A stretch of DNA of 63,644 nt, filler included, from Bipalium vagum (GCA_037834085.1; 3 parts of 3 records of this genome joined end to end with filler, not necessarily neighbours in it), one strand, 5' to 3'; counted from the whole stretch's first letter, positions 1 to 33,960 are shown. Translations and numbers: made by a program. Notes: a model not told the origin generated them from the letters alone.

Positions 1-977
1 ATTAGAAATAAATATATTAGAAATAAATATATTATAAATAAAGAGATTATAAAGAAATGAATAAATATTATAAACAAATATAAAAAAATAAATAATCACA
101 ATAAAAATGTATTTGATACTGTGAAATTAATTAAACTATTTTTCATTCTTTTTTCATCTTCAAAATAAAGTTGACAATTTTATAATTTTTGATTTTTAAA
201 TATTTATTTTGATAAATATTTTTTATTTTATTCATAAAAGTATCTGATTAAATAATTATTCAATCCCAATGGTTGTTTGTACTAAATATATACCTAAAAT
301 CAACCCACGTGAATATTAAAATATATTAAAAAAATAGAACTGTTGCTAAATTAAATGAAGATATTAAAGTTATAATTTAATTGATATTTTACTTTGAATT
401 ATTAAGTTTAATAATATTTTTCTGAAAATCGTGCGGAAAAGTTGAGCATTTCAAATATATGAAATATTTAAAAAATTAATAATGATTGTCAGAATTAATT
501 AAAATTTACTAATGAGTAAATTTTTAATCTTTCAGAGTTTATATTTTTATTATTAGTCGTAATAAATAGTCAGCTTTCAATGTGTTGGAATTTTATTTTT
601 ATTGAGTATTTCTTTTTTCAAAACGTTGTTTAATTTTTAATCTCCAAGCCTGGAAAATTGGTTCTAAGATTGATAATTATTTTTAAATAAGTACCCATTA
701 AAACAAATTCAACACTTTTTAAATATATTTTTATGTTTAAAATAAACAATGATAAAATCATTCCACAAATAACCTTCGAACTTCTGATTCATATTTGCTT
801 ACGAAATAGTAAGTTTCCTTTTAAATATTTATTTGGTAGATATCTAAACCCAAATCACTACATGATTATAACGTACCAAAATTTACGCAAGAAGTAATTC
901 TTACACATAACGAATGTCTTTGATAAAATATTAATTTTTTATTCATTCAGAAATTATTTTTCATAGAATTATTAAAA

Positions 978-1700
978 ATGAACAGGTATTCAAAAGTCGA
1001 AAGGATTGTCATTTTTTAGAAATACTCAGAAAACTATGAAGATTTAGCAGTTATGATTTGTAATTTTCATAAAAATATGAGTGAAATCGTGATTTTAACT
1101 TCATCAACTGTAAAGCGATTTATTAAAAAATTCAGGGACATTGGATCAATTAATGGTTTTAAGCAATATGGTCATCCTTCTACTAAGCGTTCGACACGAA
1201 ATATGAAAGCAGTTCGTGAGATTTGGATGACAACTTGTCATCGTTGTGAAGAATTAAATATTTCGAAGTTCTCTTCAACTTATTCTCATTAAAGATTTGA
1301 ATCTTCATGCTTACAAAGTTCGATTGTCTCAAGAACTGAAGCCTGCTGACCACACAAAACAAATGAAGCTTGTTGAATGAGTTATGAAAAATCAAATGCA
1401 GATTTTAAGTAAAAATCATTTTCAGTGATAAAGCTCATTTCAATCTGAATGATTTCGTACATCGTTATTTGTTGCTCAGAAAATCCATGATTGATTGTGC
1501 AATGAATAATGTATCTACAAGGTATCATTATTTTGTGTCGATTTTTGATCATCATTCCACCATTCTTCTCTGATAATAATTTGGTTTATCAGGCAATAAC
1601 AATTAATGATTCTTGCTATCGCGACATGATAATCCAATATTTGGTTCCTAAATTACAAGGTATTGATGTTGAAAGTTATAGACTGTATTTTAATTTAATT
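978..1700 (+). mobile_element. Degenerate Tc1/mariner-superfamily transposase (rosa/DD41D-like)
   Basis: Frameshifted fragments STVKRFIKKFRDIGS, LNLHAYKVRLSQELKPADH and IIFSDKAHFNLN. Confidence 0.65.
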
Positions 1701-3489
1701 TAACAGATATTATCATTAATAATATGTTTTCCAATATTATCGTGACATTATCTTGCTGATAGACAACCTGTAGTATTCTAACTTTTGGTTTCTTTCTTTC
1801 TCCATATGTTCCTTTGTATGTTTTCTTTACATCAGCAACCTTAAAACAAATTTTGTGGTTTAAGGATTCAACAATGTAAACAAGTACCATTATTGTTTGT
1901 AGAATCTTTAATATATATTTATCACCAAATCCAAAAAATCTTTAGATTTTGAACCGACTTACATTATTTTATTACTAATATTGTCGAGAAACTATTATTA
2001 TTAATAATAAAATAAATAATTATATTATTATTTTATTTCTACTATTAATAACTAATTTATTTGACTGCTTTTCATCTAATGTAGATATTTTAATTGATGA
2101 GGCTTTGATGCAAATACAAAACAATAGTTGCAATTTTTGTTTTAGACTTCATTGCTAATTTCAGTGAGGAGAATGCCTAGCTTTGCCTAATAGAAACCAA
2201 CAGAATTCGATTAAATGGTTGAGTTTCAACCATTTATTAACTATCAATATGTCCCAAGTAAATCCTTAAAATGTATTAACCAGGTCTGGGTAGGCAGACT
2301 CAATGAAAACAGGAAATTTCAATTCTAACCTTAAATCTAATATATCCAGGACGATGCAATTTCCATAGTGCACCAATGGAAGTAATATCTGTTAATGTCC
2401 ATAAAAATTAAAATAACGAGTTCATTAATATTCTGTCTTCATAAATGAGAACAGTGAAATAAAGTTTTCTAATATTTCGAAAACAGCGACTGCATTAAAT
2501 AATACGTTTAATTATAGTTCATTTTAATGATACAGTTAAACAAACAAACTTTCAAATAATTGGACTTGCTTTTTTGAAATTAGTGAATTACTGAATAAAC
2601 AATCATTATTTATGACCATAAATATTTAATTACCATAATATATTCAAAATATTATTTGCTACCCTCGTTTGGAGCTTTAAAATTTTTTTTAATATTGGAT
2701 TTATTGAATTTTACTGAATTCTAGCCAAATCATTAATTAAATATTTCATTCTCCATATTGATTTAATATAATAAAAAGAATCAATGCAACCTAAGGAAAG
2801 AAAATTTGGCTTTGATTTGTTTTAATTTTTATTGATATCAAATTTTTAGATAAAAGGTTTATGTAAACCGTCCAAAAAATTAGAATTTAATATATTTCTG
2901 GGTTTGGTGAATTACATTTAATTCGGAATTGACAAATGAAGTTTCTCATCATAAATTTGCGATTTATGACAGGATCATTACATTTCACATTTGAACAGCC
3001 GTTTATCTTGAGACAATTTCATCAAAAAATAACTGAAATTAATATATTTGTAAAAATCCAATTATTGTTTTATTAAGTGAGCAATTTTTTTTGTTTTAAC
3101 GATCACAAAGAATTATCGCATTTCTCAATATTTTTCTTAGAATTTTTTCTTTGATTCTGTGTAACGTAATACGTTATTTGTAGTTATCAAATAAACTTAA
3201 TGAAAATTTTGGTTAATGCTTGTTTGAGTGTTTGGTCTGTTTTTTTTTCAGTTGACGAATTTATTTTCAATTTTTATTTATTTCTTGGTTTATGCTTACC
3301 TGCTGACTTTCATCGTTATATAATTGAATAGTTTACACAAGCTCTACAAAGATCGGAATTGATCTACAGGAAGAACAATTTTTCGTTACATGGTAACTCA
3401 GTATTTATTTATTTTTATTTTTATTATTATTATATTTAATCCTAATTACTGAATTATAGAAGAAACACTTTCGAAGGATTTTCCTACTG

Positions 3490-3903
3490 ATTTTGATAAT
3501 TCTATCATGGTTATACGATAAAAAATAGTCCCTGGTAAATTCTGAGTTTGACTCATTCAGACTGCCGCATGGTCTTTCACTTCTGTTTGGCTGTTAGATT
3601 CATCGTTTTTAAAATAATCTATCCATCGTCTGACGTTGCTGACATCGATTGTCTTAGTTTTTAAAGCATTGAAAAGCGTCTTGTAATTTTGACGGCATCG
3701 GTTTTGCCCGATTTGAATAAAAATTCTATTGCACAGCGTTGTTTGATTTTTCTGCTTATTTCAGGTGCCATTTTTAAAAAAGAAATATATTTAAATAAAA
3801 ATAAATTTTGTTTCATAATGTATTAATAACCGGTATTTATACTTGAATAATGATTTTTTGGTAAAAATAAATATTATTCAAAATATTTGCATACAGGCAT
3901 TAC
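3490..3903 (-). mobile_element. mariner 5' remnant
   Basis: MAPEISRKIKQRCAIEFLFKSG...DVSNVRRWIDYF resembles the mariner N-terminal HTH region. Confidence 0.55.
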
Positions 3904-4402
3904 TTTTTGAATGACCTAATATTAATTATATTAATATTATATATAAAAATAAGAGAACGAGCGATGAGGTTCCACTTTGTCCATTATATTGATCCGAAAC
4001 CACTTTCAGAAAGGAAAATTTTTCAAAAATTCATTGAAGTGTCTCAAATTCACTTTTCTGATGAAATTCACCAAGTTTCCTTTCTACTGTATTTATCCTC
4101 GGATGGAATACTGGGAGAGTTTAGTACAAAGTTTGGAGAATATTTTATTGAAAAGTTTTTAAAATGTTGATTATGTTCTAAAACTTCACCTCATTATGGA
4201 ATCATAATTTAATTAAATATGAAAAATAATGTTTTCACTAGCAATTAAAATAAAAATTGAATTAATAATTATAATAAATAAATAATTATTATTAAATATT
4301 AAATTATTATTAAATTATTATATTATTATTAAATATTAATAGTTCCAAAATGAGGTGGGAAATCAAGAAGCCAGTAAAACGGAAAAAAATTATTGCTAGA
4401 TT

Positions 4403-7153
4403 TTATATCACAAAAACTCTAATTATTACCTTGGAGATTTCAGGCTTAGACTCTTCGGAATTATAATTTTCGGGATTAAAATGCAAATTTGCTGTACCGT
4501 ACCACATGTGGTTTACGTTGGAGAACAGATTATCGGTCCATCTGTTATCATTGGTGAGGGTTCTTTCTGAACTTTGATTTATTTCAATTTCAGAAGACTT
4601 ATACTTTCCACGATGATTGTGTAGTTTTGCTGATATTCGTCTAATAAACATTAAAACAATAAATAATCCTAAGAAAACACCACTCATTGTCACAATAGAT
4701 ATAACTATAACGACACGAAACTGATCATTAGAGAAATCCATTACTGAAGTGAAAGTCGTTTTGGAAGATACTGATACTTTTAGAGTTATTTCTGTAGATA
4801 AATTCGGACTACCGTTGTCACTTGCCACAAGTTTAATTATATAATTACCGACTCCCATACGAGAGCGGGTTCTCAGTTCTCCACTCTGGGTGTCAACATA
4901 AACCAATTCATTACCCTCAGAAACACTGTATGATATATTACCATTGGGTAAAGAGTCGAGGTCAACTGCTTGAGCAATTATTATTCTTTGATCTGGAATC
5001 AAAATACTTGTTGTGTTTATACTAGCAGAATCTGGCGTTGGATGGACCCATTTCGGATAATTGTCGTTAACATCCAATACTTGCAAAGTTATGACGTCAA
5101 TACTGGTAAGCTCTGGTTTACCTTGATCACATATCATAATGAAGATTGTATATAATTCGATATTTTCTCTGTCTAAAGTTTTATGTAATGTGATATTTCC
5201 TGATGTATTATCAATTGTGAAGATACTTTTGAGATTATTGTTGGACTCTGATGATTGAATTAAGGAGATATGTTTCCCAATAACTTTTTGTATAAAGAAC
5301 TTTACTGTTCCGTTTTCTCCCAAGTCTGGATCTTCTGATTTTAGTTGTGCCAAGAATTTAGGTATTTTGTTTTCATTTTCTTCAATTGTCAACTTGGGAG
5401 GATTTAGAATTATGGGAATATTATCATTGATATCCGTTATGGTAACGAAAACGGTGGTAGTAGCAGTCTTCGTTGTTGTTTCTCCAGGATCAATGGCAAA
5501 AACAACAATTTCTAATTTATCTTGCTTTTCTCTATCTAAGCCCTTAACAGTTCTCAGGAAACCCGATACAGGATCTATTAAAAAAAATCTTTCGGTTCGA
5601 GGTGCTATTTCATAGATCAACTGAGATGTTGCATCATCATCAGTTGCCTCTAACTGAAGTAAGAAGTGACCATTGCTGTTATCTTCTGGGACTTCAATAA
5701 AATATTGTGATTTTTTGAATTTCGGCGAAAATTCATTGACATCTTGGATCTTTACGGTAATCTCTTCTTCCGTTGTTAACTGCGGAATTCCTTTGTCGGA
5801 ACAGAAAATTCTCACTTGAAAATGGCTTTCAATTTCCCTGTCAAACGTTCTTCTAGGCTGTAATGTGTATATATCTCGCCCTTTGACCGATTGTGAATTG
5901 GAAAGTTTGAAATTGTTTTCTCCGTGTGTCAAATTGCAATCAACCTCCGAATTAAGACCAATATCGCCATCCGAAACCCAAATGATTGCAAAGTGAGACA
6001 AGGATGTTTGGTTTTCTTTAATATTAAATTCCTTTTTGTTCGGACCCAAGGAATTTATGTTGATTACTGGTCTCTGATTATTTACATCTTTCAAGTGAAC
6101 AAATACTGTTGCATATCCAACTTTTGGCACGCTTCCACCATCAGAAGCTTCAACACTTATGGAAAAGTCTTGAGCAACATTTTTACAATTGAGTATTTTC
6201 TGTAATTTTATTTCTCCGGTATGAGAACTGATGTAAAAGTATGATAACATAGACTGGTCTTGTACCTGTCCGAAACGATATCGAACCTGTCCAAACAGTC
6301 CAGAATCCGAATCCGTGGCAGTTACATTTGCTACCACTTCTCCTACCATTGCGTTCTCCATGATCGTTATTTTATATTCTTTTTGTAAAAATACTGGGTG
6401 ATTGTCATTTATATCTAGGACGGAAATAGCTAACGTTTGATTGCCGCATAATGGACTGGTTCCACAGTCACATGCGGTGAGAGTGGTTTTATAATGTACT
6501 TGGGTCTCATAATCAAGAGCCTTTATGATAATTAGATACAGAAGATTTGGGAAACTAATATTAAAAACATGATTAAAACCATACATGAAATAAGAACAAA
6601 TATTATTTGGCTCTATATCGGGATCGGAAGCAGTTCTTAGAGATATTTTGTATCCTACTTGAACCGCCTCACTTATCTGAATTTGATAATACGATTCCGA
6701 AAACGTTGGTTGATGATCATTGATGTCTTGTATCGTTATAATAACATTGATCCAATAGTCGAGTGGTACAAAAACTGTCAATTCAATTTGACATCGATCC
6801 AGTGACGTGAAGCTTGTTGGACAGATCTGTTCTCTATCAATTCGTTGAGCAATGTGCAACTTTCCTGTATCCTCTTCCAAAGAGAAGTATTTCAACAGCT
6901 TTCCGTCTTCGTACAGCTTGAAGATGGATTTTGGCTGGATTTTAATAAGGTTGGAATCAATGTTGAGATTTCCAATTAAATTCCCAATCTCCGTTTCTTC
7001 CTTGACAGCATAGAGAATATTTCGTATGACATCATTGCAAAAGAACATTTTCCATTCATTCTCAATTAAAACAATAAAGATCAGAATTCTTTGCAATTTG
7101 ACGTTGACAATTTTCGGCCACAATTCAATGAAAAATGTTGTCTCCAGATACAT
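4403..7153 (-). CDS. Protocadherin (7 cadherin repeats, delta1-like architecture); ectodomain, TM and start of tail in a single large exon
   Basis: 916-aa uninterrupted ORF. Cadherin linker motifs DINDHQP, DINDNHP, DVNNQRP, DVNEFSP, DINDNIP and DVNDNYP, plus a 7th repeat, with repeated LDRE/xDxD motifs. EC1 has the protocadherin-type RIDREQIC..C. TM segment VVIVISIVTMSGVFLGLFIVLMFI followed by RR. A donor AAG|GTAATA at 4430/4429 suggests the tail may continue in further exons that I could not place. Confidence 0.93.
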   Translation of the reverse strand: MYLETTFFIELWPKIVNVKLQRILIFIVLIENEWKMFFCNDVIRNILYAVKEETEIGNLIGNLNIDSNLIKIQPKSIFKLYEDGKLLKYFSLEEDTGKLHIAQRIDREQICPTSFTSLDRCQIELTVFVPLDYWINVIITIQDINDHQPTFSESYYQIQISEAVQVGYKISLRTASDPDIEPNNICSYFMYGFNHVFNISFPNLLYLIIIKALDYETQVHYKTTLTACDCGTSPLCGNQTLAISVLDINDNHPVFLQKEYKITIMENAMVGEVVANVTATDSDSGLFGQVRYRFGQVQDQSMLSYFYISSHTGEIKLQKILNCKNVAQDFSISVEASDGGSVPKVGYATVFVHLKDVNNQRPVININSLGPNKKEFNIKENQTSLSHFAIIWVSDGDIGLNSEVDCNLTHGENNFKLSNSQSVKGRDIYTLQPRRTFDREIESHFQVRIFCSDKGIPQLTTEEEITVKIQDVNEFSPKFKKSQYFIEVPEDNSNGHFLLQLEATDDDATSQLIYEIAPRTERFFLIDPVSGFLRTVKGLDREKQDKLEIVVFAIDPGETTTKTATTTVFVTITDINDNIPIILNPPKLTIEENENKIPKFLAQLKSEDPDLGENGTVKFFIQKVIGKHISLIQSSESNNNLKSIFTIDNTSGNITLHKTLDRENIELYTIFIMICDQGKPELTSIDVITLQVLDVNDNYPKWVHPTPDSASINTTSILIPDQRIIIAQAVDLDSLPNGNISYSVSEGNELVYVDTQSGELRTRSRMGVGNYIIKLVASDNGSPNLSTEITLKVSVSSKTTFTSVMDFSNDQFRVVIVISIVTMSGVFLGLFIVLMFIRRISAKLHNHRGKYKSSEIEINQSSERTLTNDNRWTDNLFSNVNHMWYGTANLHFNPENYNSEESKPEISKVIIRVFVI

Positions 7154-8097
7154 TGTGATGAACGATTTTGCAAATTATTTACACCCTTTTTCACTATAAA
7201 AAATTGTTTGAGAAAAAAATGATAATGAATTTCTTACATATAATCTCGCTGGTAGCCAATAGAATCAGCTCTCTTTCATCATTGAGACTGGGATTTGATA
7301 ACCAGTTCTCATAAAACTGGATGATGATGATGATGATCGCTGTCTTCAGTAGTCGTTCTCATTACCCACTCAAGATTCTGACTAGTGTAAAGCGCTCGGG
7401 GATATCAAACACTCCTTTGACATTTCCGTATAAATCCAGGAAGGAAACTTGAACATTAAGTCTTTGGAATCAAAACCTATTTTAAAAATTATTTTTATTA
7501 TTTCGTATTATGATTATATTTGAGTTACTGGGGCCGTTAAACCTATAAATTTTTCAAAAATTAAATTAAAATTAAATTTATAAAATATTTAATTTAGCAA
7601 ATAATTATTTTTAAATTATTCTTGAAAATAATTTTGTTTTACAGCTTGGTTCCCATAAGAGTGATTTTTATATTTTAAAATCATTTTTAATAAGAAATGG
7701 AATTTTAATAAAGATTTATTAATTTATTGAAACTTGCGAAAGTACAATTATCCACCATTCTTTTTTTATTTAGAAATGATAATTATGAATATATTTTAAA
7801 AATTTATATTATTATATATTAAATTAAATATTATATATACGAATACTTTATATGTATACTTTATACTTTATTTAACATCTTTAAGATAATTCGTAAATAA
7901 TAATATTATTATTTAATATTTGATATTTAATATTTTTACACAACTAAATTAAAATTTTAAATTAAAATATTTTTTTATTATTAATAAATTAATATAAATA
8001 TAAATATAAATAAAGATAAATAAATATTGATAAATATTAAAACATATAAATAAATAAATATGGTTTTCTAAAGAATTAAATTTAATCATAAAATATA

Positions 8098-12635: not shown

Positions 12636-13007
12636 AAAATATTTTTGATCAATTACATCAAAATCATTAAATATAATTCATATTAATAATGATAAATGAT
12701 AATGATACGGATAATAATAAATCCGTAAACCCTTCTGAAATTAGATATTTTGTAAAACAATCTAAAAGTTCAATTTCGATATTCTTAACCCATATAAAAT
12801 CAGTCACTTTTTAGGAACTTAACAAATATAAATTTAAGTATGTATACATTATTTAATATTTTTAAAATATTTTAAAAGTAAATGAATGAATGAAATTTTA
12901 AAAATAAATTTATTTTTAAAATTTAATAGAAAAAAATTTCCACGTCTGAGAGAATTTGCTTAAATATTATTTGTTTTATCACTTCATAAATTTACTCTAA
13001 AATGACT

Positions 13008-14154
13008 TGTAGTTTTGATAGCAAACCAATTGATATTAACATCGCAGTCATCACCGACACGGATCCAATCACTGAAGGGTGGCGATGTTAAAGAAATTCA
13101 TCACGCAGTACATAAAGTATTTCACGATGAAAGAAACTCTGAGAAACACTGATCTATTGTTTATTAGATCTGGATTTGATGGAGAAGTACGAAAGCACGG
13201 CCGGAAAGTTAATGGATTTGAAGGAAGACTACGGTTGGGTTTTTTTTTTCATACTAAAAGATTTGATGGGTGATTGGGAAAAGTTACTCAACTATCTTAG
13301 AGAAGCCGGTAGCGTGACAATTTTCTGGAGAAAGTCTGTGGAGACTACGACCAAGTCCAAATCCACGAGTAGATTCGGCCAACATTCCAGGAGCAGCATC
13401 CGTGATTCAGGCAGTGCCAACTCCTTCGAACAATCAATAGATTAGCATATTTGATTAAAACTTGTGAATCAAAACATTTACCATTGTGTATTTGTGATCC
13501 CTTAATATTGTATTGTTTTTATCAAAACATTTAACATTGTGTATTTGTGATCCCTTAATGTTGTATTGTTTTTAATCTTGGCGTTATATTGCCGTTTTGT
13601 AATATATGTAATAAATGTAAAGTCAAATTTGATTGATTGATAAAATATTAAAAAATAAAGCGAATATTTATGCAACCCAAATTTTACGTAAACCCAAATT
13701 TAAATATTTGTAAAAATAACTGAGGAGCTTTTTGTGCATCTACAATTACTATAGACGATTTATGAAAGAGTATGCACTGAAAGCAAAAGCTATGTAATGA
13801 TTATGCGGAATTAATAATAAGAAATTGATTTGGACACCAGGAGTAAATAAAGCATTTGAAGAACTAAAAGAGGCACTGATAACCAACCCAATATTTTTCT
13901 TTCAAGAATAAAGAATTAAATAAAGAATTCATTCTTGAAACTGATGAAATTTTGATACAATTCGGAATTTTAAAGTTTTTTTCAAAGAAAGATTCAAATG
14001 GCCATGAAAGAGATGTAGCACATGACTCGTATTCAATGAACGCTCGCGTAAAAGGTTACAGTGTGACACGTAGTTTGTAATTAGTTTTGTAATCATTTCA
14101 ATCATTATTTATATGGGAGATAGTAGTTTGATAGTAAACCAATTGATATTAACA
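13008..14154 (+). mobile_element. Internally deleted Ty3/Gypsy element bounded by about 34-bp LTR-like direct repeats
   Basis: tgtagttttgatagcaaaccaattgatattaaca (13008-13041) recurs as tagtagtttgatagtaaaccaattgatattaaca (14121-14154) right after gggaga. The inside has gag remnants (DWEKLLNY) and RT/RNase H remnants (LRSFLCIYNYYRRF, KLIWTPGVNKAFEELK, FCNHFNHYLYG) homologous to the 53-58 kb element. Confidence 0.8.
13468..13573 (+). repeat. 53-bp tandem duplication
   Basis: atcaaaacatttaccattgtgtatttgtgatcccttaatattgtattgttttt x2 with 2 mismatches. Confidence 0.9.
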
Positions 14155-14421
14155 GTTACTTTTAACATCATGGTTATTTTTTAAATATAATTTTTTATTT
14201 AGTTTAATAGAATTAAATTAATTAATAATAAAATAAATTCTCATTTACTGTCTAGGAATCATAAAATGTTGTTTGTATATATCAATACAAATTTATTAAA
14301 TTCAGCGTCATTTGACATTTGTAATATGGCTTCGAAAAGTTAATTAGTGTTATTTTTTATTTAATAGAAATGGAATGATTTTTTATATATCAGCTGTTGA
14401 AATTTACACATTTTTAGAGTA

Positions 14422-14836
14422 ATGAATGAGACATTAAGTTCTAATATATGGCCTAGTTTTGAAAATTCCCGCCAAAATTGGAATGATCAATTTAAAAGCA
14501 ATTCAGCTAATAGTTGGCAATATAATATCAATAATTCAACAGAAATTTATCAATCACCCGTGGATTTAAATACATTATGGTCTGCTAAATCTGAAGTAAG
14601 CGATGAGTGTGAGAAAGATTCGTACATCAAATCGATATGGAGTACGAGCGCAAGTCCAAATCATAACTTGTCGGAAAATAATATCTTGACTATGCAAGCT
14701 GATAGTCGAAAATCAAATTTTGAAAAAGCTTCAGCTGATTCTCAAAAATTGAATATTAGTTATTTAATTGTGTCAAATGAACGTTGGGGAAATATAAAAA
14801 TCAACCAGACAACTCCTTGGACTATTTGTGAAATTG
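14422..14836 (+). CDS. TNRC6: GW182/TNRC6 exon 1 (Trp-containing N-terminus, motif I)
   Basis: ATG at 14422 with an in-frame stop upstream. Donor G|GTATGG at 14836/14837, then a 46-nt intron to ttgtag at 14882. Confidence 0.8.
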
Positions 14837-17800
14837 GTATGGTTTTGAGATGAACATTGTTTTTAGTTTATTGATCTTGTAGATGATAGTGAGAAACGAG
14901 CACGCGATCCTATGGTATGGCGAGCTAAAGTCGATGGAACTGAAATTTGGGAAGAATACTACACCAAGCAACACGGCAAGCGACGTCCCCATCAAATAGA
15001 CAATTCCTCATTCAATGCCAGTGAAATTATGTGGTCATCCTCATCTGATATTTCCCAGAATGCCAATCTGTTATGGTCGAATAAATCAAATGAAGTCAAT
15101 TCCGCCGGACAGACAGATCTTTTTTTACCAAATTATGGTGGAAATGGAAATAATCATTCCAATTTCAGTTCTAATAATGGAGTTAGGCAGGTAATGTCAT
15201 CTCTTTCATTGTGTGATAATAATTCTAAGAAAAAAATTATGGATTTCCATGAAATGGAAATAATTTTTGTTGAAAATATTTTTGTGCATTAATTGATTAA
15301 CTTTAACGACTGAAATAATTTATATTGAATAATAATTTTTAATGATTGTGTCATGTGATTGGATTAAATGTCCAGATTAAAGTATTTTTTGGCAAATAAT
15401 TCATCTATAAGTAAAATCGTTTAGCTGCAGTCGAAAATGGTAAATTTCTTGTTAAATTTCGAATTTTTCCATCGAGCTAGTGCATATTTTGACCGGAATT
15501 CGTGGTGGCGGCGGTTGGATTGTCAGCGGGAACAGAAATGATGGCTATTTTCTAATTTATGAGAAATTCTAAAAATGTAATAAAATAATATTCCTAGAAA
15601 ATTATTGATGAAAATAATAATTTATTAAAAAATCGATATATGAAGACATTAAACTATGAAAGAAATATATTTTCAATTATTTATTATTTAATTGATTTAA
15701 TTTAAATGATATTTTAATTTTAATATTTCATATATTATATGTACAATATTTTAAAAATTGAAAATTTTATTTATATTTTAAATATTTAATCAATTTTATT
15801 TTATTAATAATTCTATTATGGGTGTGAATAAATAACCAGACTTTTTTGAAGAAATAATGAAGAAGAAGAAACTAAAGTTAATAATATAAAGTCTTTGACG
15901 TCTCTATTCGTATGGCACCCATCTTACTAGTTTTTCAATCATTCAAATTGTTTGTAAACGTTTGGTCACGGTAGAACGATCGAATCAAAATGATATTTAC
16001 ATATGATCTTACGTCTGACATGAATTTTGGCTGAGCAAAGTCTTCAATTCTACATCATCAAACTATTTTGGGCGCCCAAATCAATCATAGTCCTTGATGT
16101 TGAAATCATCATTTTTAAACCGATGAAACCATTCAAAAATTGTGTTTTTGACAAAGCATCTTTCCCATATGTTCCCTCTAATAAATGGCAACTCTCAATG
16201 ACTCTTCTTAGAGTAAACAAATCTTCCCGCAAATACTGCTTTCTCCAATTTTCAAAATTTTGCAACCTAGATTAACTAAAGAGGAATATTTAAAAAAATC
16301 ATTCTTACATTTAAATTTGATAGATAAATATTGATATTTTAAATAACATATTATTTATGTATAACCAAGAATTTTAAAACTGAAAGTTTTTGTTTGATTC
16401 CTGTTACTTATTCATACCTAATATTTTTAATTATTTAAGAAATTTTCTAAAAGAAAAATTCAAATAATACTAACAAGAAATTAATTGATAATATAATGAG
16501 GTTTTATATCCATTATTTAATTTTAAACAAGAATTAGGAATATACAAACATGAAATTATCGCAACATGACCGTTTCAATTCTTTATTATTTAACTTATTG
16601 ATTTAATTCATGAATTTAATGTACAGATTTTTTTAACTTAAGCACAAGCTATATTATGAAACTTTTCAAATCAAAGATTTATTGATTTATTCAAATTTAT
16701 TTTATTACTTATTTTTATTTAATTATTTTTTTAATTTAATAATATTTTTATTTTTAATTAATTATATATGAAAGATATTTTACTTATTAATTTAAAATTA
16801 AAAAATTATCATGGCACTAAAATAAAGCTAATAATAATAGAGTTTACAGATTTAATTTTTGTCGTAATCGAATGTAAAAACAATCGATATTTATTAGATT
16901 TGAGTCGTCGGGGCTATGTCGAAGAAAAAGTCTTTCCGTTTCAGTCTTAAAATTTCTCACAATAATGTTATTATTATTACTGCAGAGCAGCTTGAAACAG
17001 TAGACTATTTTTAACTTGTCTGGTCACCAAAGTGGTGTTAGATTTATTATTAATCAAATTTTCTATTTTGCATAATCAGGCGAAATATTTTCCGCCACGT
17101 AAAACATGACAATGAATAATTTAATTATGATTTAACCAATGAATTATCTTACTTTGGAATCCGCTTGTCCTGTGAGAAACTGCTTTGTCTACTTTATTTC
17201 TTTTTTTACTAGCAGCAAAAAAGAATATTCGTCAAAACAGGCTTTTTGAAGATTTTCATTCCATTGCCAAACTTATTTCTTGAACAATAACTTAAATTTT
17301 TTCACTCCACTGAATATGTATAAAATCGATAGTGTATTGTTGAAAAAAATTCTTAAATGATTATCGAAAACACGATAATTTTTTTTTAAAAATCAATAGT
17401 TTTCACTTTATTCAATTTCACTTTTAATTAAAATTCTATAAAAAATTTTAATTGATTTTCTAATGAAAACATTGACAGACGAGAATTACATTGATTAATT
17501 TTTCTGGACTGGATTAAAGTATCAAACCGCTTTAATTTGTTTGAATAATTTTTATATATTATTTGACACTTATACAAATATAAAAAATATTGCCGGCAAT
17601 AGCTTCCATCTTCACTTCCGACATCATCAGATGTTACCAATAGTAACCTTTACATTTCATTTTCTGAAAATACAATGGCTTTTTTGCTACCAGTATCATT
17701 ATTGTTAATCAAAATTATCATGTCAGAAATTTTTATCTGATTCATATTCAATCAAATGAATAGTTTAAGTTTAGTTTTTCAATTTATTTACAATACCCCT

Positions 17801-20800: not shown

Positions 20801-23800
20801 GTGATAAAGAAAATTAAAGTAATTTAATTATATAATTTTGATTTATGATCATTGATCTTAGATGATTTTCATTACTTTTGAATGTTAAAATATTTATACT
20901 ATTGATTTTGTATTATTGACTTTCTTGTGAGAAATTGTCTAATCAATATTAATTTCTTTTTTATCCAAAATCAATTTGTCAATTAAAAATATTTTGATTA
21001 TGAATTTAGTCGATATTTTTAGAAAATGTTATTGGATATTATTTTCTAAAACTTCAATTTTTTATTAATTTTTCTTTCACAATACTTTTTTTAAAAAATT
21101 AATAATAAAAATATTGGACAAAATATGAAAACTTTCTTTTTGTGCAGAGTATGACTAGAAATCAAGCTCAAAAGTATTTGCAAGAAATGGGTTTCAGTCT
21201 GAGTGATTCAATTGGTGCATTAGTAAACAATCAGATGGATCTTCCAAAGGCTCTGAACGAGTTGCAAAGCAAGTACCGAATTTTCACAAACGGTGTCCAC
21301 CAGTCTTACAATAACCGCCTCATCATGGACAATGGTAGCCTTACTCGTATTCCACCATGTTCTCCAATCAATCCTATTGTCGGTCAAAATGCATCAATGG
21401 TCAACTCTAATTATCCCAACAATATAGAAATGTTTCATTCTGATATCTCAGACCAAGTAAGCTGTTTTCTCGATTGGTTTCGTTGTACTCACTGTTTGGG
21501 TTTATATCAGGAGATCAAAAGAAGCACATGATTTTAAGCTAATTGATAACTTATTTCAATTATTAATCTTAGAATGTTTGTTGGCTAAGAGATTTTTTGA
21601 GAAGTGTTAGTGAAATCATTTATTATCTCATTCTTAAAACACTTGTTTCAGAAACAAGTTCAATTTACGTTGTTTGATTACAGCTGAACATTTCTTCTTT
21701 GATGATGAATATTATTAAATTAAATAAAATGAGTTCTTCTTTAAATCAATTGAACACAAAGAGGAGAATGCTTCTAATGTTTATGTAGTTTTTTGAAATT
21801 ATCCTTTTTCACAAAAATTCTCCTTAAGATATTCTGCTGACTTTGTTGAGCTTGATTCTCTTTTTGCGGGGGAGCTTCGTCTCTTTAGTTTCGAGTTACC
21901 TCATTGCATTGTCCATAGCAACATCAGGGGAACTCAAAAAAGTTTCAATCATTTTCTGATGTCACTAGCAAGGATTGTTACTGATATTGGATATTATTCA
22001 AAATTGATTTATTCATGTACTATCTCATTAAATAGTCTTTGGGACGTTGACCTTGGATTTCGGATTCTCTTTTACAACAGTCTTTGTTGAGAAAGCCAAT
22101 CAAATAAAATTTACTTCAATGCTAGTTACCCAGTTATTGGTGAAGTCTTCACTTTTCCACTTCATGAAGTTATCACCAATAAGCTGAAATATCATAGAAC
22201 AGGTGCGAGAAGGGTTCTCAGTCAATTAACGGGTGACAACAAAAAGACAAGACTTCGACTTTGCACAGAGCTGAAAAACCGACATGACCAGGAATGTAAT
22301 GTTTTTTTTGGACAGTATTATGACCAGTGATGAGACATGGATTCATCATTATGAACCGTAATCTAAAAAACAAAGCATAGAATGAAGGCATTCAAGCTCA
22401 ACAGTCAAGAAAAAGTTTCGAACCCAATCATCAGCAAGAAAATTCATGATGACAATTTTTTTTTACTCAATGGGCCCGGTTTTGTCGATTTTATATGACT
22501 AGTCGAGAATAAATGGCACATACTAGGGTGACATGCTCATGAACAAAGTTAAGTCAGCAATATTGATAAAACACCCTGGGTATCAACGTGGAGTTATCAT
22601 TTTGCTTCACGATAATTTAAGGCCTCAGAAAACTCGAGAAACCATTGATAAGTTACATTGGAAGCTATAGCTTCACCCTCCATATAGCCTTTCCCTGGAT
22701 CCATCGGATTTTAATTTGTTTACTTACGAGGTCAGAAGTTTATTGACAATAATCATATAAAAGAAAATGTGCTAAATTGGCTCCGAGGTCAGGACAAATT
22801 ATTCTTTGCAACCGATATAAGTAAACTTATTCACAGATGGGACAAGTGTATAAATGTTTGTGGAGATTATATTGAAAAGTAATCACAGTGTCACATTGAT
22901 TAAAAAAAGTGTTTTCTCTATTATTCTGTCTTTAATTATTGAACTACCCTCTTATTATGAATATTTAAATTGGTTTCCTTTTATCAGTAAACCTTTTCAT
23001 TCACTGATCACATCCTAACGTGTATAATACTTTTATATACCTATTTATAACTTTGCGCATTGCTTTTGACAATGAGTTTCATTAAATATTAGAGTTATTA
23101 AATATTTTTACAATTAAATTCTCTAAATTTATATATTCTTTAAATATAATTCAAATTCTCAAGACTTATTATTATTATTATTGTAAAAATAAAATTCGAG
23201 TTATTAAAATATGTTCTATGAAATATTCTTTATTGATTTAAAAATTATCTGTTATCAAAATTTAAGGTCAATTCTTTTAATAAAAAATAAAAAAATTGAC
23301 TTTTCGTTTGACCTAAGTGGCTTTACTTAAAATTTTCAAATCGAATTTTCGTACCTAATATCTTTTGTCTGTATATCGATTCCGTTGCTTTTTGTGAAAG
23401 AATTGTGTATTAGCCAAACAGTAACTCACACTTTCCATGAAAGAAAATCTCCCAGTTACTTCGGAAAGAGTTTAAGAGTTTACTGATTTATATCTTCATT
23501 AACCAATTGCACTTTAATATTTTTTGTGCATTTTTGTTTAATTTTTTCAACAGGTTTTCTTTAAGAGGTATAACTTGAATATAATTGAAGGGGTATAAAC
23601 TAGAACATGACTAATTTATAAGTTATTTAACATGAATATTATTTCCAGAGATTGTTGTATCCTTAAAAACTCTCTCAAAACAGTAAAATGCTTTTTTAAA
23701 AAATCAGTGGAACGAAAATTTGTTCTTTGAATACACTGACTATTTATCCCATAACTTTTAATTATGAAAGTTTATCGACGAAAAATATATATTTAGTAAA

Positions 23801-26800
23801 AGTTAAAGCTTAGACATTGATTTTCTTTTTAATTGTTAATTACCCAGATTCTTCCATTCTTAAAAATGATTTGTCAGACATCGTATTTTGCAGAAATTTT
23901 CAATTTCTCTTTAATTCAATAACTCATTATCAGAAATCAATTCTTATCTTGTAAAATTGTGCTACCAATATTGATTGAGGCAATCATTTCACTCTTCGCA
24001 GTTTCCAATTTAAAATCTCAATCTACTTAATTTTATTTTATTTTTCTCCACAAGCACTGCATACCGACCACTTTTCCCAGATAGACACATAATATGGCTA
24101 AATTTGGATTTCTAATTGGTCGGTGGCTCAGTTTCCAGTGAATGGAGTGGCGGATGATTGTAGAAAATAAAGGATGTCGGGAGTATCGAATTGATGAACT
24201 AGACAAATGCAGAATAGTTTTCTTACTACAAAGGCTCATCTTCGTCAAAAAGGGAAATCGTATAATTGTAAAATTAACCATTAGAATGCCTCCACCAGTT
24301 TTTTCTCTGCAAAACTGGATGGTTTTGGTAAATTATCTTATTAAAATATAATGAATCTTTTTAACGTATTTTCGATTTATTAAATTTTGTTTATTTTTCG
24401 TATTAATTTTATCGGTTTTTAATATTTATTGATTTTTTTGTTTTTGAAAAATGTTCCTATTGTTGTTATTTGTCATTTTGAAACATAATATGTTAATAAA
24501 ATGAATATTTGAGAAAAATGCACACCATTTTCTAAAATATTGTGTTTAAACCTACTGTGTTTCAATTTTCAGATGATGGATTCAAAATACATGGGTAATA
24601 TGGACCAAAACATGACAGCTTTCAACCGGATGAGTGAGACTAGTTGTCAACATTCAAGTAATTTGTCCAGACAGCAAGACTCATTTCGAAACAACTTTCA
24701 CAACAGTGGTATCAACAATCGAGCCATGTCTACGAATTCCGGACATTTTCCCAACTCCTCTGATATGGGTCTACTCAATCAAGGCATGAATCGAATGAAT
24801 ATGAATTTCAATGTTCGATCGAACTCCATTACCAATAATAGCTCATTCAATGGATTGCATAATAATAATAACAATAATAGCAATAGTAACAGCAACAACA
24901 ATTATAACATGGATCTCCGACAAAATGGTTCTGGTATTCCAAATATTTTCGGAAGATCGATCTCAAAGCCGTCATTTTTCTCTCTAAATAATTCTGGAAT
25001 GAATTGGAACACAGAATCGTCTGTTATGTCGCCAAATGGTGCTATGTCAGATACAAGCCAATCACATCTTGCCAAAAACATTTCTTGTCTCGCCAGACCA
25101 GATAAAATAGCAATTGTTATCAAGAAAGTGCAGCATGTCAGTAATTGAAGATTGATTATTATCATTATTAATTATTATTAATTATTATTATTATTATTAT
25201 TTTCATTATTATCATTTTTATTTTTATTTATTAAAATTTTGTTTAATTTTACATTTTATTGGAAATCGATAACAATGCTAATAATAATAACATTCTTTTA
25301 TCAATGTTGAGAAAAAATGAATGTTATTGAAAAACCTTATAATTTTTCTTGTTAATAAAACATTTAAAATCAATTATATTCAATTTTCTAAACTTTTTAA
25401 AAAGTTTTAATTTGATAAGAGAAAATTGATAATTGATTTTTAAAAAAATTATTAATTAAAATTATCAAATCAGTTTTCCAAGTAAACCCTTACAATTCAA
25501 ATTCAAAAGTATTGATAAAAATAATTTTGATAATCGATTATATAAATTTTGAAAGATTTAAAACTTGAAAATTATTTTTCGTAGAAAATTATAAAGAAAA
25601 CTCCATGAATTTCGTAAATATTCAAAATCAAACTTTTCTTTTTAAAAATGGGTCTGTCAAAATCAATTTTAAAATCATTTGTATTTGATTTTTTTTATTG
25701 AATTTTAATTTTATTTCTAATAATTATTTTATTGATTTGTTTAACAGAGGTAGAGACACGTAACACATAAATGGCACTATTCTGTAAATAATATGAAACA
25801 GAAATTGAGCAATTTCAATTTTTGTTTATTTTTCAACAAAATTTTTATTTCAATTTAATCAATAACAGTTTTACGGAAATCAGTTTAGTTCATAAACTTT
25901 TTAATTATAATCAATATTCTGGAAATTGGTATTGATTTCTCGTTTCTTACACGAAATCCATTTAATGTTGATAATATAAAATTTATTTTTCGTAAATATC
26001 AATAATAGTTTTTTTTATTTGTCTGCAAAGTTTCATTAATTTTATCAATCAATTTAGTTTATTTTTCGAGGAAAACGGAGTGTTGTTGTTCAATCTGTGA
26101 CGGTATTTCTGCTTCTCTACTATTTGAATTCATTTTTGGTAGAAAGCAAACAGCGACATTTCACCTTCCCATCACAATAAAACAAACGTCACTAAAAATT
26201 ATCCTTTGGCGTGACCAATCAAAAATGTGTTTTCTGCAGAATACTGTTGAAATTTTCATAATTTTCCTTAGCAAAATTTTTATTTGAAGTTTTTTTATTC
26301 CAATATTATTTAATATTTATAGTATTTATTTATGTCAGTTGTGAACTTGAATGATGTGTGACTGTTTGGAACCGACTTTGATGGTTGCCGAAAATCAACA
26401 GAACAGTATTTTAGACATTCTAATCAATAAATTATGTAAACAACTTTTTTCTTCATTTCCAGTAAAAATCGCCAATCCTTTTCTTCCAGTAAATTATAAA
26501 TTATTAGTTTATTTCTTTATTTATAGGTATTATTATGGATAAAATATTTGCTTGTAGTTTATTTTTGTTCTATTTATATGAGATGGTGAATAGAAGACCG
26601 GTTTTCGATATTATCTTCTATTTTTCATATATGTGTGTTCAGTGGTTCAAAATTTGATTTTAGATATTTTAATTGATTTTAAAACAAATCCGCTTTTATA
26701 TATTGATTGTCGATTTCGTTTCACAGAGATATTTAAATTAATGTTAGATGATGGTGGATTGTCAGAAAAAATTCTGTCCAGTTATAATTTTGGAATTGGA

Positions 26801-27749
26801 TTGTGTCCGTCGTAATTTTTTTTGATAAATAATCAATGCGCTGGAGATCATGCAGTCACTTTAATAAATAAGCTACATTTTCAGACATCCGCGTCGGACA
26901 GGTCATTAAATATTTTGGTCTTTGTCAATCAGACATGAACTTTTTACACCTAATGTTTCTTTACCATTCCATGTGATTGATACGTTCTGATAATGATGGT
27001 GTCATACATGTCAATGGCAAAATTTTTTGTGACTGGATAACATTGACAATTTTGGATTATTTTGTTACCACTCTACTTCCATTTTTTTGAAATTATTGAT
27101 TTTTTAAAAAATAATTATTTATTTATTTCTTGTTAATTTTTGTTAAAACCACACTAGAGATTTTTCAAAATAAAGATCATTTTTATATTACTTTTCCGTC
27201 ATGTTCTTGCTATTCTTATACACTCACCTCTTGTTAATAAAATTATAAAACATTTTGTTCGAACATTTCCTCTCATTAAATCTCATTTGTCTGTTTGCAT
27301 TTGTAACGATCCTCAAAAAGTCGTTCATGAACCAAATTTTTATTTATTCAGGTAATTTTTATATCAATTTGTAAGATTTTTACATTAACACTGTTCTTTT
27401 GTGCTGCCGCACACATAATATAAAATAAAAGGATAGATATGGATGTTTTCCATTTTAAATTGATTTTTTGTATTATTATTATTGTCTTTCTATGCAAACT
27501 AAACTCTTTATTTTATATTTCACTCAACTCTTTCAGAAACATATTGATTTTATTAAATCAATTTGTATGGATTCTGGAGCTATGGTCAATTTTCATTTAA
27601 ATCCCCAAGCTCAATCGATAATAGTTCAGTTTACAAATATTCAAGAGGCTTATCGTTGCTTAAACATTATCCAAAGCCAATTATCTCTTCGAGTCGAACT
27701 AATTAATAGTCAAGACGATTTCATACATTACATGACCGGTGCTAATTAA
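14422..27749 (+). CDS. TNRC6: GW182/TNRC6-family miRNA-silencing scaffold, compact form; join(14422..14836,14883..15190,21148..21456,24573..25136,27537..27749), about 602 aa
   Basis: Five exons with GT-AG boundaries and compatible phases (1,0,0,0), 1809 nt ending in TAA. Domains in GW182 order: VSNERWGNIKINQTTPW (motif I, cf. LSNxGWGQTxIxQxTAW), WRAKVDGTEIWE (DNGTxxW(E)-type Ago-binding motif), UBA-like YLQEMGFSLSDSIGALVNNQMDLPKALNEL, an N/M/S-rich region, and a C-terminal RRM IKSICMDSGAMVNFHLNPQAQSIIVQF (cf. LRTLCMQHGPLITFHLNL). Confidence 0.85.
14883..15190 (+). CDS. TNRC6: GW182/TNRC6 exon 2 (VDGTEIWE motif)
   Basis: Phase-1 acceptor restores the frame D-D-S-E-K-R-A-R-D-P-M-V-W. Donor CAG|GTAATG at 15190. 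Confidence 0.8.
15816..16422 (-). mobile_element. Internally deleted mariner in GW182 intron 2
   Basis: Imperfect inverted ends (tatgggtgtgaataaataacc / gttacttattcatacctaata) and a Mos1-like N-terminus KQYLRE...LLEGTYGKDALSKTQ. Confidence 0.7.
16850..18480 (-). mobile_element. Degenerate hAT-like transposase remnant
   Basis: Fragments SPIIKNIALC, IIHCH and TERLF...RRLKS (dimerisation-domain-like), in the expected order on the - strand. Confidence 0.4.
21148..21456 (+). CDS. TNRC6: GW182/TNRC6 exon 3 (UBA-like domain)
   Basis: Acceptor ttttgtgcag|AGT, MGF-containing UBA signature, donor CAA|GTAAGC; phase 0 at both ends. Confidence 0.85.
22175..22953 (+). mobile_element. mariner remnant (3' two-thirds with TIR) in GW182 intron 3
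   Basis: IMTSDETWIHHYEP, LLHDN, HPPYS..PSDF and RWDKCI...GDYIEK*; end taattattgaactaccctctta. Confidence 0.85.
24573..25136 (+). CDS. TNRC6: GW182/TNRC6 exon 4 (Asn/Met/Ser-rich low-complexity region plus first RRM strand)
   Basis: Acceptor ttttcag|ATG; poly-Asn run at about 24861-24908; ends IAIVIKKVQH|GTCAGT in phase 0. Confidence 0.8.
25750..26300 (-). mobile_element. Tc1-like remnant in GW182 intron 4
   Basis: DWSRQRIIFSD and KMNS-like fragments; heavily decayed. Confidence 0.35.
27537..27749 (+). CDS. TNRC6: GW182/TNRC6 exon 5 (RRM, stop)
   Basis: Acceptor tttcag|AAA; TNRC6-type RRM residues (CM..G....FHLN); TAA at 27747-27749. Confidence 0.85.
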   Translation, partial: KHIDFIKSICMDSGAMVNFHLNPQAQSIIVQFTNIQEAYRCLNIIQSQLSLRVELINSQDDFIHYMTGAN

Positions 27750-29165: not shown

Positions 29166-29265
29166 NNNNNNNNNNNNNNNNNNNNNNNNNNNNNNNNNNN
29201 NNNNNNNNNTTAATTAATTAANNNNNNNNNNNNNNNNNNNNNNNNNNNNNNNNNNNNNNNNNNNN
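29166..29265. other. Assembly gap with artificial six-frame-stop linker
   Basis: 44 N + TTAATTAATTAA + 44 N = exactly 100 nt. Confidence 0.95.
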
Positions 29266-32060: not shown

Positions 32061-33960
32061 AGCGAAATTTTCGTGTGACAATCAAAGTTTGTTTTTTGAT
32101 CGCTTTCGATAAGGGTTTCGGAATCGGATTGTGTGGAACTGTGATCGTCTTTTCAGAATTATTTGAATTTTTTAAAGCTGGTTTTGGCAAAAGGTTTGGT
32201 TCAATTTCGAGTATGAGTTCTTTAAATTGTTGTCTGATCTCTTTTTCACAAATCGTGAAATCGCGAATTGCTCTCTCGGAAATATTAAAAATTTCCAATA
32301 GCTCATGGATTGATTTTCCGGCTTGTAATTCGTTCAATACATCAATCTTCTTCCTAAGTGGAAATGAAGACGGCACTTTTGGCTGGGTCTTCGACCTAAT
32401 TCCTACGTCGTCGTTTTTGGCACCGTTTTGATCAATTAACGGCTTCTTTGCCGCCTCTCCATTGATCAATTGCTCTGACAACCATTTTCGATTGAGGGGG
32501 AGTGCATACGTTTTGATGAGCAAACGTCAACCCTTTGAAATCAGACAACAAGGGAATCTAAAATCTTTATTGATCGCATCAGGCAATGTTCATCATTATT
32601 GATAACCACCACTAGAACAATAATTGACTCACATTACTCTTTGGTAGCTTCAGCTTAGATCCCCGGATATCAGGTTTAAGCTCTTCTGGTCACCAATCAA
32701 TTACCAAGCTATCTCGGAACCTGACCGCAATCTTTAGTGTAGAATTCTCCGTTCACACATTGACAATAAAAATAATTAATAGTGAAACTTAAATTACGAA
32801 GTACCATAGATAATTTGGCCAAGCTGGCTGATTTGTGGTTTCTTTTTTATAGTGACATTCCCCAGCAACCCGATTGATTCTGTCACGTGTTCGGAAATAT
32901 CACCAATCATTTCCCGCTCATTCTTCCGGATTGCCTCCGCCATATTAATTCATTCTTGGGCTTAAACTCAAACCAATTAATTTAATCCTTATACCCGAAA
33001 GAGCTCCAGCTTACAACCCACTTCATTAATTATTTTCCTGGTTAGCTTCTTTTGTTGATTAGGTTTTCCAAATCTCGCGCTTATGGCATAGGTATGACCA
33101 GTCGAAATAAGTGAATGGATAAAATATTCCATTTATTTATTTATTATTATTATCATGTTCGGAAAACGAAATATTTGTACAAATCGTGTACACAAGTCAC
33201 CCAGAGAGAGATGATGTAAAATTAGTCTTTTAAGCCTTAACAGAAATATATTGATGGCGACAGAACCATGAGAACTTTAACCTTGAAGACAGGTTATCAC
33301 TAATCTCCCCTTACCTTTCAACTCCTTTACAGAAATATGAAACAGTAATGGTTCACTATTGGTGCTGGTGTCCACAACAGTCCTGCATCCTCGACAATAA
33401 GAATAATTATCTCGGGAACCGGGGAAGGTGGTCCATTGCTTCCATGTCGCTCACAAATCGAAAACGACATAAATAATGCAAAAATCTCCTCAGCTGACTT
33501 ATCAAAACAAAATTTCAAATTTCCTTTCAGTTTACCTTTCGACCTATTCGGGAAAGACGGGATAAAAGGGCATTTGACAATGGGTCTTTCACACTGGGGA
33601 AGGAATAAATTCTGGACCTGACGCGATTTATTCGGTCAACCAATAAATAGAAATAAAATAAATAAATAAATAACCACCACGAGAGGAGGCGCATGAATAA
33701 AGGACGGAAAACGGAATCTTAATGAATAGATGAACGAAAGTACACCAAGTATTCCTATCAGATGGCCACCGAGAGTCACCGTTGCCATTATTGATCAAAA
33801 GTCCCATTGTGGTAGCCAACAAATACGTAATATAAACAATTAAAAATATAATGGAGTTTGTTTTAATGCTCACGTTGGAAAGCTGGACTCGTTGGACGTG
33901 GTCCCAGCAATCTGGGTTTCATTATTGATCCTCGGTCACGCCATTGTCGAAGCCCGTACT
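32038..33960 (-). pseudogene. Decayed mobile-element-type coding region: CENP-B/psq-type HTH, preceded by possible Ulp1-like and OTU-like fragments
   Basis: ORF 32038-32523 has FPLRKKIDVLNELQAGKSIHELLEIFNISERAIRD. Upstream fragments VVVINNDEHCLMRSIKILDSL and INNGNGDSRW are weak protease-like matches. Confidence 0.4.

Follow-up and report, generated by a model that had tools for sequence, protein, structure and literature searches.

GW182 proteins and GW-poor adaptors

GW182 family proteins have been described as sharing one order of regions, in which a W-rich region is followed by a UBA domain, a low-complexity linker and an RRM (PMC4615383, PMC3384334). In human TNRC6, each Argonaute site has two or more Trp that stand at least ten residues apart (PMC9262622). 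In fly GW182, one N-terminal GWG carries nearly all AGO1 binding, and a fragment of residues 1-490 rescued the knockdown on one reporter (PMC2965232). Motifs of the form WG/S/T and G/S/TW recruit CCR4-NOT, a function distinct from that of the Argonaute motifs (PMC5314787). The GW182 RRM has LLLKNL as RNP2 and QGIALCKY as RNP1, with an extra α3 helix and no aromatic residues in RNP1 or RNP2 (PMC2685099). The nematode adaptors AIN-1 and AIN-2 bind ALG-1 via two to three GW repeats (PMC3384334) and use the same Argonaute Trp pockets (PMC5147811). Very divergent putative GW182 proteins have been reported in all flatworm lineages (Fontenla et al. 2017, PMC5594548); Table S4 of that paper gives candidates across flatworms, with a 234-bp region lacking annotation for S. 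mediterranea.

The protein described here is predicted from a flatworm locus. It resembles Drosophila GW182 (Gawky) and human TNRC6A/B/C in domain order, RRM type and the presence of Trp pairs at least 10 residues apart. However, the fly protein has 12 N-terminal repeats and the human ones have more than 20 (PMC3384334), compared with no GW and one WG here. It is also only 602 aa long, its linker is Asn-rich (21%) rather than Gln-rich (4%), it has no PAM2-like pattern, and one Trp follows the UBA and none the RRM. The flatworm candidates, going by their description, are likewise very divergent, and tBLASTn reached them only in steps that started from Macrostomum, whereas the Macrostomum GW182 keeps a Q-rich region and part of the silencing-domain motif (PMC5594548). 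AIN-1 and AIN-2 resemble this protein in being short and GW-poor, with no PAM2 and with Argonaute binding via few Trp (PMC3384334, PMC5147811), but they lack a UBA and an RRM and still carry 7 and 4 GW repeats (PMC3384334), whereas the protein here has a UBA-like segment and a predicted RRM fold. The N-terminal effector domain of Drosophila GW182 (aa 205-490) also consists of N-terminal Trp motifs, which repress without binding AGO1; the fly domain is one of three and is GW/WG-based (PMC2965232), whereas the one proposed here would be the sole one and of the hydrophobic-W-S type. In the literature searched, which covers few subscription journals, no UBA/RRM-bearing GW182 that lacks GW and silencing motifs was found.

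A five-exon gene model without GW repeats

The window is the whole stretch of Bipalium vagum DNA that was analysed, 63,644 nucleotides with filler included (GCA_037834085.1). Five predicted exons joined into an open frame of 602 aa, and all predicted introns are GT-AG. The features of the locus are as follows.

~13000-14160 (+): decayed Gypsy-type gag/pol remnant, upstream of and outside the gene, with its end about 260 bases from the ATG
14321..14417 (+): candidate 5' UTR intron (97 nt) or trans-splice acceptor, acceptor score 1.7, just before the ATG
14422..14836 (+): coding portion of exon 1; aa 1-138, rich in Ser and Asn, seven Trp, among them the hydrophobic-W-S residues W53 and W73 as well as the W122-W133 pair; donor score 3.0
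14785..14950 (+): predicted Argonaute-binding core; W122 (the sole WG), W133, W151 and W161, split by intron 1
14883..15190 (+): exon 2; aa 139-241, W151-W161 pair with DGTEIWE, W189 and W203 hydrophobic-W-S
21148..21456 (+): exon 3; aa 242-344, UBA-like domain at ~21163-21270
24573..25136 (+): exon 4; aa 345-532, a linker rich in Asn and Ser that holds W489 in N-W-N
25101-25136 (+): first RRM strand, at the end of exon 4 in the spliced model
27537..27749 (+): exon 5; aa 533-602 and stop, remaining RRM and C-terminal helix

Recounting the five-exon join gave 12 Trp, no GW and one WG, the same composition and length that the sequence-only reading had reported for its 602-aa protein. That reading had placed the protein at 14422..15190, which corresponds to exons 1 and 2 (aa 1-241) only and not to the full 602 aa. 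Intron 1 is 46 nt long. Three other exon-4 donors are in frame too, giving proteins of 595, 599 and 564 aa with identical Trp, GW and WG counts, and the donor at 25137 was the best of the four scored (1.6 vs -4.9, -4.2 and -0.4; 25023 was left out). With the neighboring protocadherin as training set for the coding model, the modelled frame scored best in all five exons. Contigs of run X1, which is possibly the assembly's own source, matched all five exons with no differences. The splicing of the five-exon model is predicted, and none of the 15 listed joints (of 248; contig runs X1 and X2) coincided with a modelled intron. Run X2, which carries another organism code, contained a 243-base contig (14999-15241, depth 2.2) identical to exon 2, by carry-over or because the same animal was inside that sample.

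Additional GW-rich exons, which would have changed the picture given by the sequence-only reading, were searched for on this contig among stop-free AG..GT/GC pieces with at least 9 coding bases. None of the 442 pieces in 7200-29165 and none of the 158 in 1-7200 contained two or more GW/WG; six and two pieces, respectively, contained one. Two of these 8 (among 600 open pieces) were inside the Gypsy remnant; they are the only upstream exon candidates with GW (13013-13444) and were rejected as Gypsy remnants. Splicing from 14320 to the acceptor-like site before the ATG leaves an in-frame upstream stop, and therefore gives no coding extension. At the other end, the protein stops only a few residues past the C-terminal helix of the RRM, and the contig ends 1.4 kb past the stop codon. 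In the relative P0153, the called frame is open past the RRM where the window has a stop: a Trp lies directly after the residues matching the protein C-terminus, followed by about 150 repeat-like residues. A GC-rich piece in intron 2 (15481-15543, +) has a Gly run and then a Trp in one frame, and it was below the splice-site thresholds.

Genomic setting

The window is AT-rich (19-40% GC in 2-kb windows) with many transposon remnants. N-linkers at 29166-29265 and 44928-45027 join three contigs, and therefore adjacency across those points is not real. The N-runs flank a short spacer, which at the first site has stops in all frames. The GW182-like gene and the protocadherin are both on the first contig, on opposite strands. 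The protocadherin (4406-7174, -) is a long single-exon frame with six cadherin repeats, and its best one-to-one HMMER match was P0009, at 71% identity. The Gypsy remnant upstream of the GW182-like gene matched a Gypsy element at 53-56 kb by tblastn (E 9e-8 and 2e-12), and the ends of this remnant may be marked by a 30-base stretch that, by eye, recurs in similar form near 13005 and 14125. The element itself (53006-57754, +) is of the Gypsy type with zinc knuckles and reverse transcriptase, and is interrupted by a mariner-type transposase at ~56200-57025. Three further places gave no Pfam match: a short frame at 39169-39426 (-) that has basic pairs and a start resembling a signal peptide, neuropeptide-precursor-like by eye; a Cys-rich frame at 49689-50135 (-) with a hydrophobic start, possibly secreted; and two adjoining GC-richer open frames of 102 and 96 aa at 33330-33918 (-), possibly exons.

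Tryptophan motifs of the N-terminal region

Eleven of the 12 Trp lie before the UBA-like segment; only W489 follows it, and none follows the RRM. Trp is enriched in aa 1-241 (11/241), with P = 9e-5 at an assumed background of 1.1% and P = 2e-7 against the neighboring protocadherin (5/881). The four hydrophobic-W-S contexts noticed in the sequence-only reading (W53, W73, W189 and W203) are real, since shuffling aa 1-241 (100,000 rounds) gave an expectation of 0.23 (P = 6e-5, for a pattern chosen post hoc). In the same region, GW plus WG came to 1, where 0.73 was expected and Gly makes up 3.3%. Since the Trp are kept and GW/WG is near chance, what was lost is the Gly enrichment, rather than GW being avoided. 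Trp followed by G/S/T was mildly enriched (6/11 vs 2.65 expected, P = 0.026), while W-motifs counted on either side were not (7 vs 4.67 expected, P = 0.13). Flanking glycines are not known to be strictly needed for Trp-mediated Argonaute binding.

The spacings within the predicted Argonaute core are 11, 18 and 10. The W122-W133 (11) and W151-W161 (10) pairs agree with the published rule of at least ten residues for Argonaute sites, as do W53-W73 (20) and W189-W203 (14), but the rule is a loose one, as every successive Trp spacing in the 602-aa protein is at least 10. Two hydrophobic-W-S motifs lie on each side of the core. The stretch aa 119-163 seems to resemble GW182 motif I, with DGTEIWE presumably its second half and not a separate motif. 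Two motif-I-like patterns, in their fuller form, occurred once each when all six reading frames of the window were counted, both in the GW182-like gene; these patterns were partly fitted to the sequence itself, and the two adjoin across intron 1. Searches for N-terminal homologues with exon 1 gave 0 of 163 candidates, and the exon 2 query with aa 1-45 gave none. The single exon 2 match among 105 metagenome stretches was a chance match in a bacterial-type gene and was dropped.

UBA-like segment, linker and apparently missing silencing domain

The UBA-like segment reached Pfam UBA_7 at E 0.031, below the cut-off, and 0.83 with the Atlas UBA clusters. Its best UBA sequence match was that of TDRD3 (E 0.2), and the TNRC6 UBA was absent from the results of the PDB sequence search. 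The predicted model has three helices at low confidence (pLDDT 70, pTM 0.33); with this model Foldseek gave 0 matches, and no UBA was among the best 50 VIA matches (best Z 4.5). The low-complexity linker, aa 286-520, contains 21% Asn, 17% Ser and 4% Gln, and thus is Asn-rich in the place where GW182 proteins have a Gln-rich region between UBA and RRM.

Four short PAM2-like patterns were absent from the 602-aa model, and Pfam gave nothing for exon 4. Neither PAM2 nor the Mid/C-terminal W-motifs of the GW182 silencing domain were found in the model. The human silencing domain has 11 Trp (PMC5785596) and Nematostella has 11 W-motifs (PMC5314787), compared with one post-UBA Trp here. In the gene model as it stands, the canonical C-terminal silencing domain seems to be absent from the protein, a point that the sequence-only reading did not raise.

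RRM and probable GW182 identity

The AlphaFold model of the RRM has a β-α-β-β-α-β fold with a third, C-terminal helix (pLDDT 84); its input was exon 5 plus 14 codons of intron sequence, which stood in for the real first strand. It reached 0.89 with the Atlas RRM_1 cluster. Compared with the fly GW182 RRM (2WBR), it gave a Z of 8.3 with an rmsd of 3.1 over 80 aligned residues, and the alignment spans 2WBR residues 1113-1198, to the end of α3. In the fold search 2WBR ranked 14 of 48,161, within 1 Z of other RRMs; the RRMs of NELF-E, Puf1, 9G8 and SYNCRIP (Z 8.5-9.1) were equal to or above it, and several non-RRM folds also equalled or outscored it. In a second comparison, of 998 chains, its rank was 39. 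Foldseek gave nothing at E<=0.001 for the RRM model, with 2WBR not among the matches listed, and the PDB sequence searches did not recover it. Pfam gave no significant family for any of the five exons or six further queries, and no GW182-specific family. The RRM query matched none of 50 metagenome stretches, and Rfam gave 0 matches. One of nine candidates in the exon 5 search, P0153, has an RRM exon 84% identical.

By eye, aa 525-530 (IVIKKV) align with RNP2 LLLKNL and aa 557-564 (AQSIIVQF) with RNP1 QGIALCKY, the RNA-binding positions of both RNPs are non-aromatic, and the RNP span is 39 residues, against 40 in PMC2685099. Both features of the GW182 RRM, the extra α3 and the lack of RNP aromatics, are therefore found here, with a stand-in for the first strand. 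Where the fly RRM has W1118, this protein has Ala by eye.

Taken in order, the Trp-rich N-terminus, the weak UBA, the Asn-rich linker and the terminal RRM with its extra helix follow the GW182 arrangement, with both the UBA and RRM folds being predictions. Orthology to GW182/TNRC6 is very likely, and we regard the protein as probably a genuine GW182 in much reduced form. GW repeats, the Gln-rich region, PAM2 and C-terminal W-motifs were not found, and we therefore call it a GW182-like variant, not a certified member of the family. The proposal that this is a divergent, short GW182-like adaptor that profile searches miss is supported by the domain order, the RRM features and the lack of a Pfam GW182 family. 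The accompanying proposal of a minimal Argonaute-binding code was not supported, as the kept Trp pairs fit known Argonaute sites and the W-S motifs fit the CCR4-NOT definition. The missing GW repeats are less surprising because a WG-bearing Trp pair is kept and GW-poor adaptors are known.

Proposed mechanism

We propose, with a probability of about 0.5, that the protein is a GW182 orthologue in which the Trp pairs bind Argonaute and the W-S motifs recruit CCR4-NOT. The W122-W133 and W151-W161 pairs would grip the microRNA Argonaute, and the four flanking hydrophobic-W-S motifs would recruit the CCR4-NOT deadenylase, substituting for the C-terminal W-motifs and PAM2 that are absent from the model. 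The protein would then work like the fly fragment 1-490, with an Argonaute site plus an N-terminal effector domain. The proposal starts from the reading frames, the positions and contexts of the Trp, and the fact that the model contains neither GW nor PAM2-like patterns, all of which were observed. We infer the orthology, the Argonaute binding and the division of labor between Trp pairs and W-S motifs by analogy with work in fly, human, Nematostella and nematode. This assignment is favored on account of the spacing rule for Argonaute sites, the fly effector data and the CCR4-NOT motif definition. Several observations count against this explanation: no search named GW182, the UBA matches stayed below threshold, W-motifs on either side are not enriched, fly W1118 is Ala here, the N-terminal searches found no homologue, and in another laboratory N-terminal fragments of the fly protein did not rescue on most reporters (PMC3384334). 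A wider version is doubtful, namely that this is a GW182 without silencing domain or GW, with glycine-free N-terminal Trp motifs, in which about 200 N-terminal residues hold both Argonaute and deadenylase binding and silencing is free of PAM2-PABP across the lineage.

The W-S motifs could themselves be replacement Argonaute sites, which would make this a true GW182 with multivalent, glycine-free Argonaute binding. All four are in the N-terminal region, where GW repeats usually bind Argonaute, their pattern is non-random (P = 6e-5, post hoc), the spacings of W53-W73 and W189-W203 comply with the ten-residue rule, and GW182 proteins commonly have several additive Argonaute sites (PMC3384334, PMC5314787). 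We nevertheless consider this unlikely, since the WG-containing Trp pair is kept and no new code is required, the W-S motifs match the definition of CCR4-NOT motifs (PMC5314787), and the fly N-terminal GW/WG beyond the first 205 aa do not bind AGO1 (PMC2965232). A still weaker candidate is an AIN-2-like, effector-less Argonaute adaptor or reduced paralogue that leaves silencing to some other protein or to a second, more canonical GW182 elsewhere in the genome. The frames of the locus are intact, with coding signal in all five exons and 84% RRM identity in P0153, and the seven Trp outside the core pairs in aa 1-241 point to retained binding surfaces. These observations argue against such an adaptor, whereas the lack of a PAM2-like pattern and the single post-UBA Trp agree with it, as do AIN-2, which binds ALG-1 but showed no significant PAB-1 or deadenylase binding (PMC3384334), and the GW182-independent miRISC known in C. 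elegans embryos (PMC5147811).

The remaining two explanations concern the gene itself. GW-rich or silencing-domain exons could lie beyond the contig or be micro-exons, so that the protein would be more canonical than the model. The splicing is a prediction, there is an acceptor-like site before the ATG, the contig stops 1.4 kb past the stop codon, and the P0153 frame runs on beyond the RRM and includes a Trp there. Against these points, none of the 600 open pieces had two or more GW/WG, the five exons join in frame unaided, and the exon 5 stop is identical in the X1 contig; an incomplete model is thus improbable. A UBA-plus-RRM protein with a Trp-rich disordered N-terminus but no GW182 homology is a very improbable explanation, because the domain order is GW182-like, the RRM lacks RNP aromatics and has a third helix, and the two-part Trp motif seems to resemble motif I, with its patterns found once each in the window and both in this gene. 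What speaks for a non-homologue is that no search assigned the subfamily, 2WBR was tied with other RRMs, the best UBA sequence match was TDRD3 (E 0.2), and GW repeats, PAM2 and the Gln-rich region are missing.

Implications

No new binding code is revealed by the protein alone, and both GW-poor adaptors from nematodes and divergent candidates from flatworms have already been published. That the silencing domain is apparently lost makes a more testable oddity than the missing GW repeats, and the presence of only 11 N-terminal Trp makes a full mutant scan a small one. Should the model hold, the locus would also show that fast-evolving animals can be wrongly scored as lacking GW182 when the call relies on GW repeats or Pfam. 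The protein would then be a natural deletion experiment on two debated points, the need for Trp-adjacent glycine in Argonaute binding and the ability of an N-terminal effector alone to carry microRNA silencing without PAM2 and C-terminal W-motifs.
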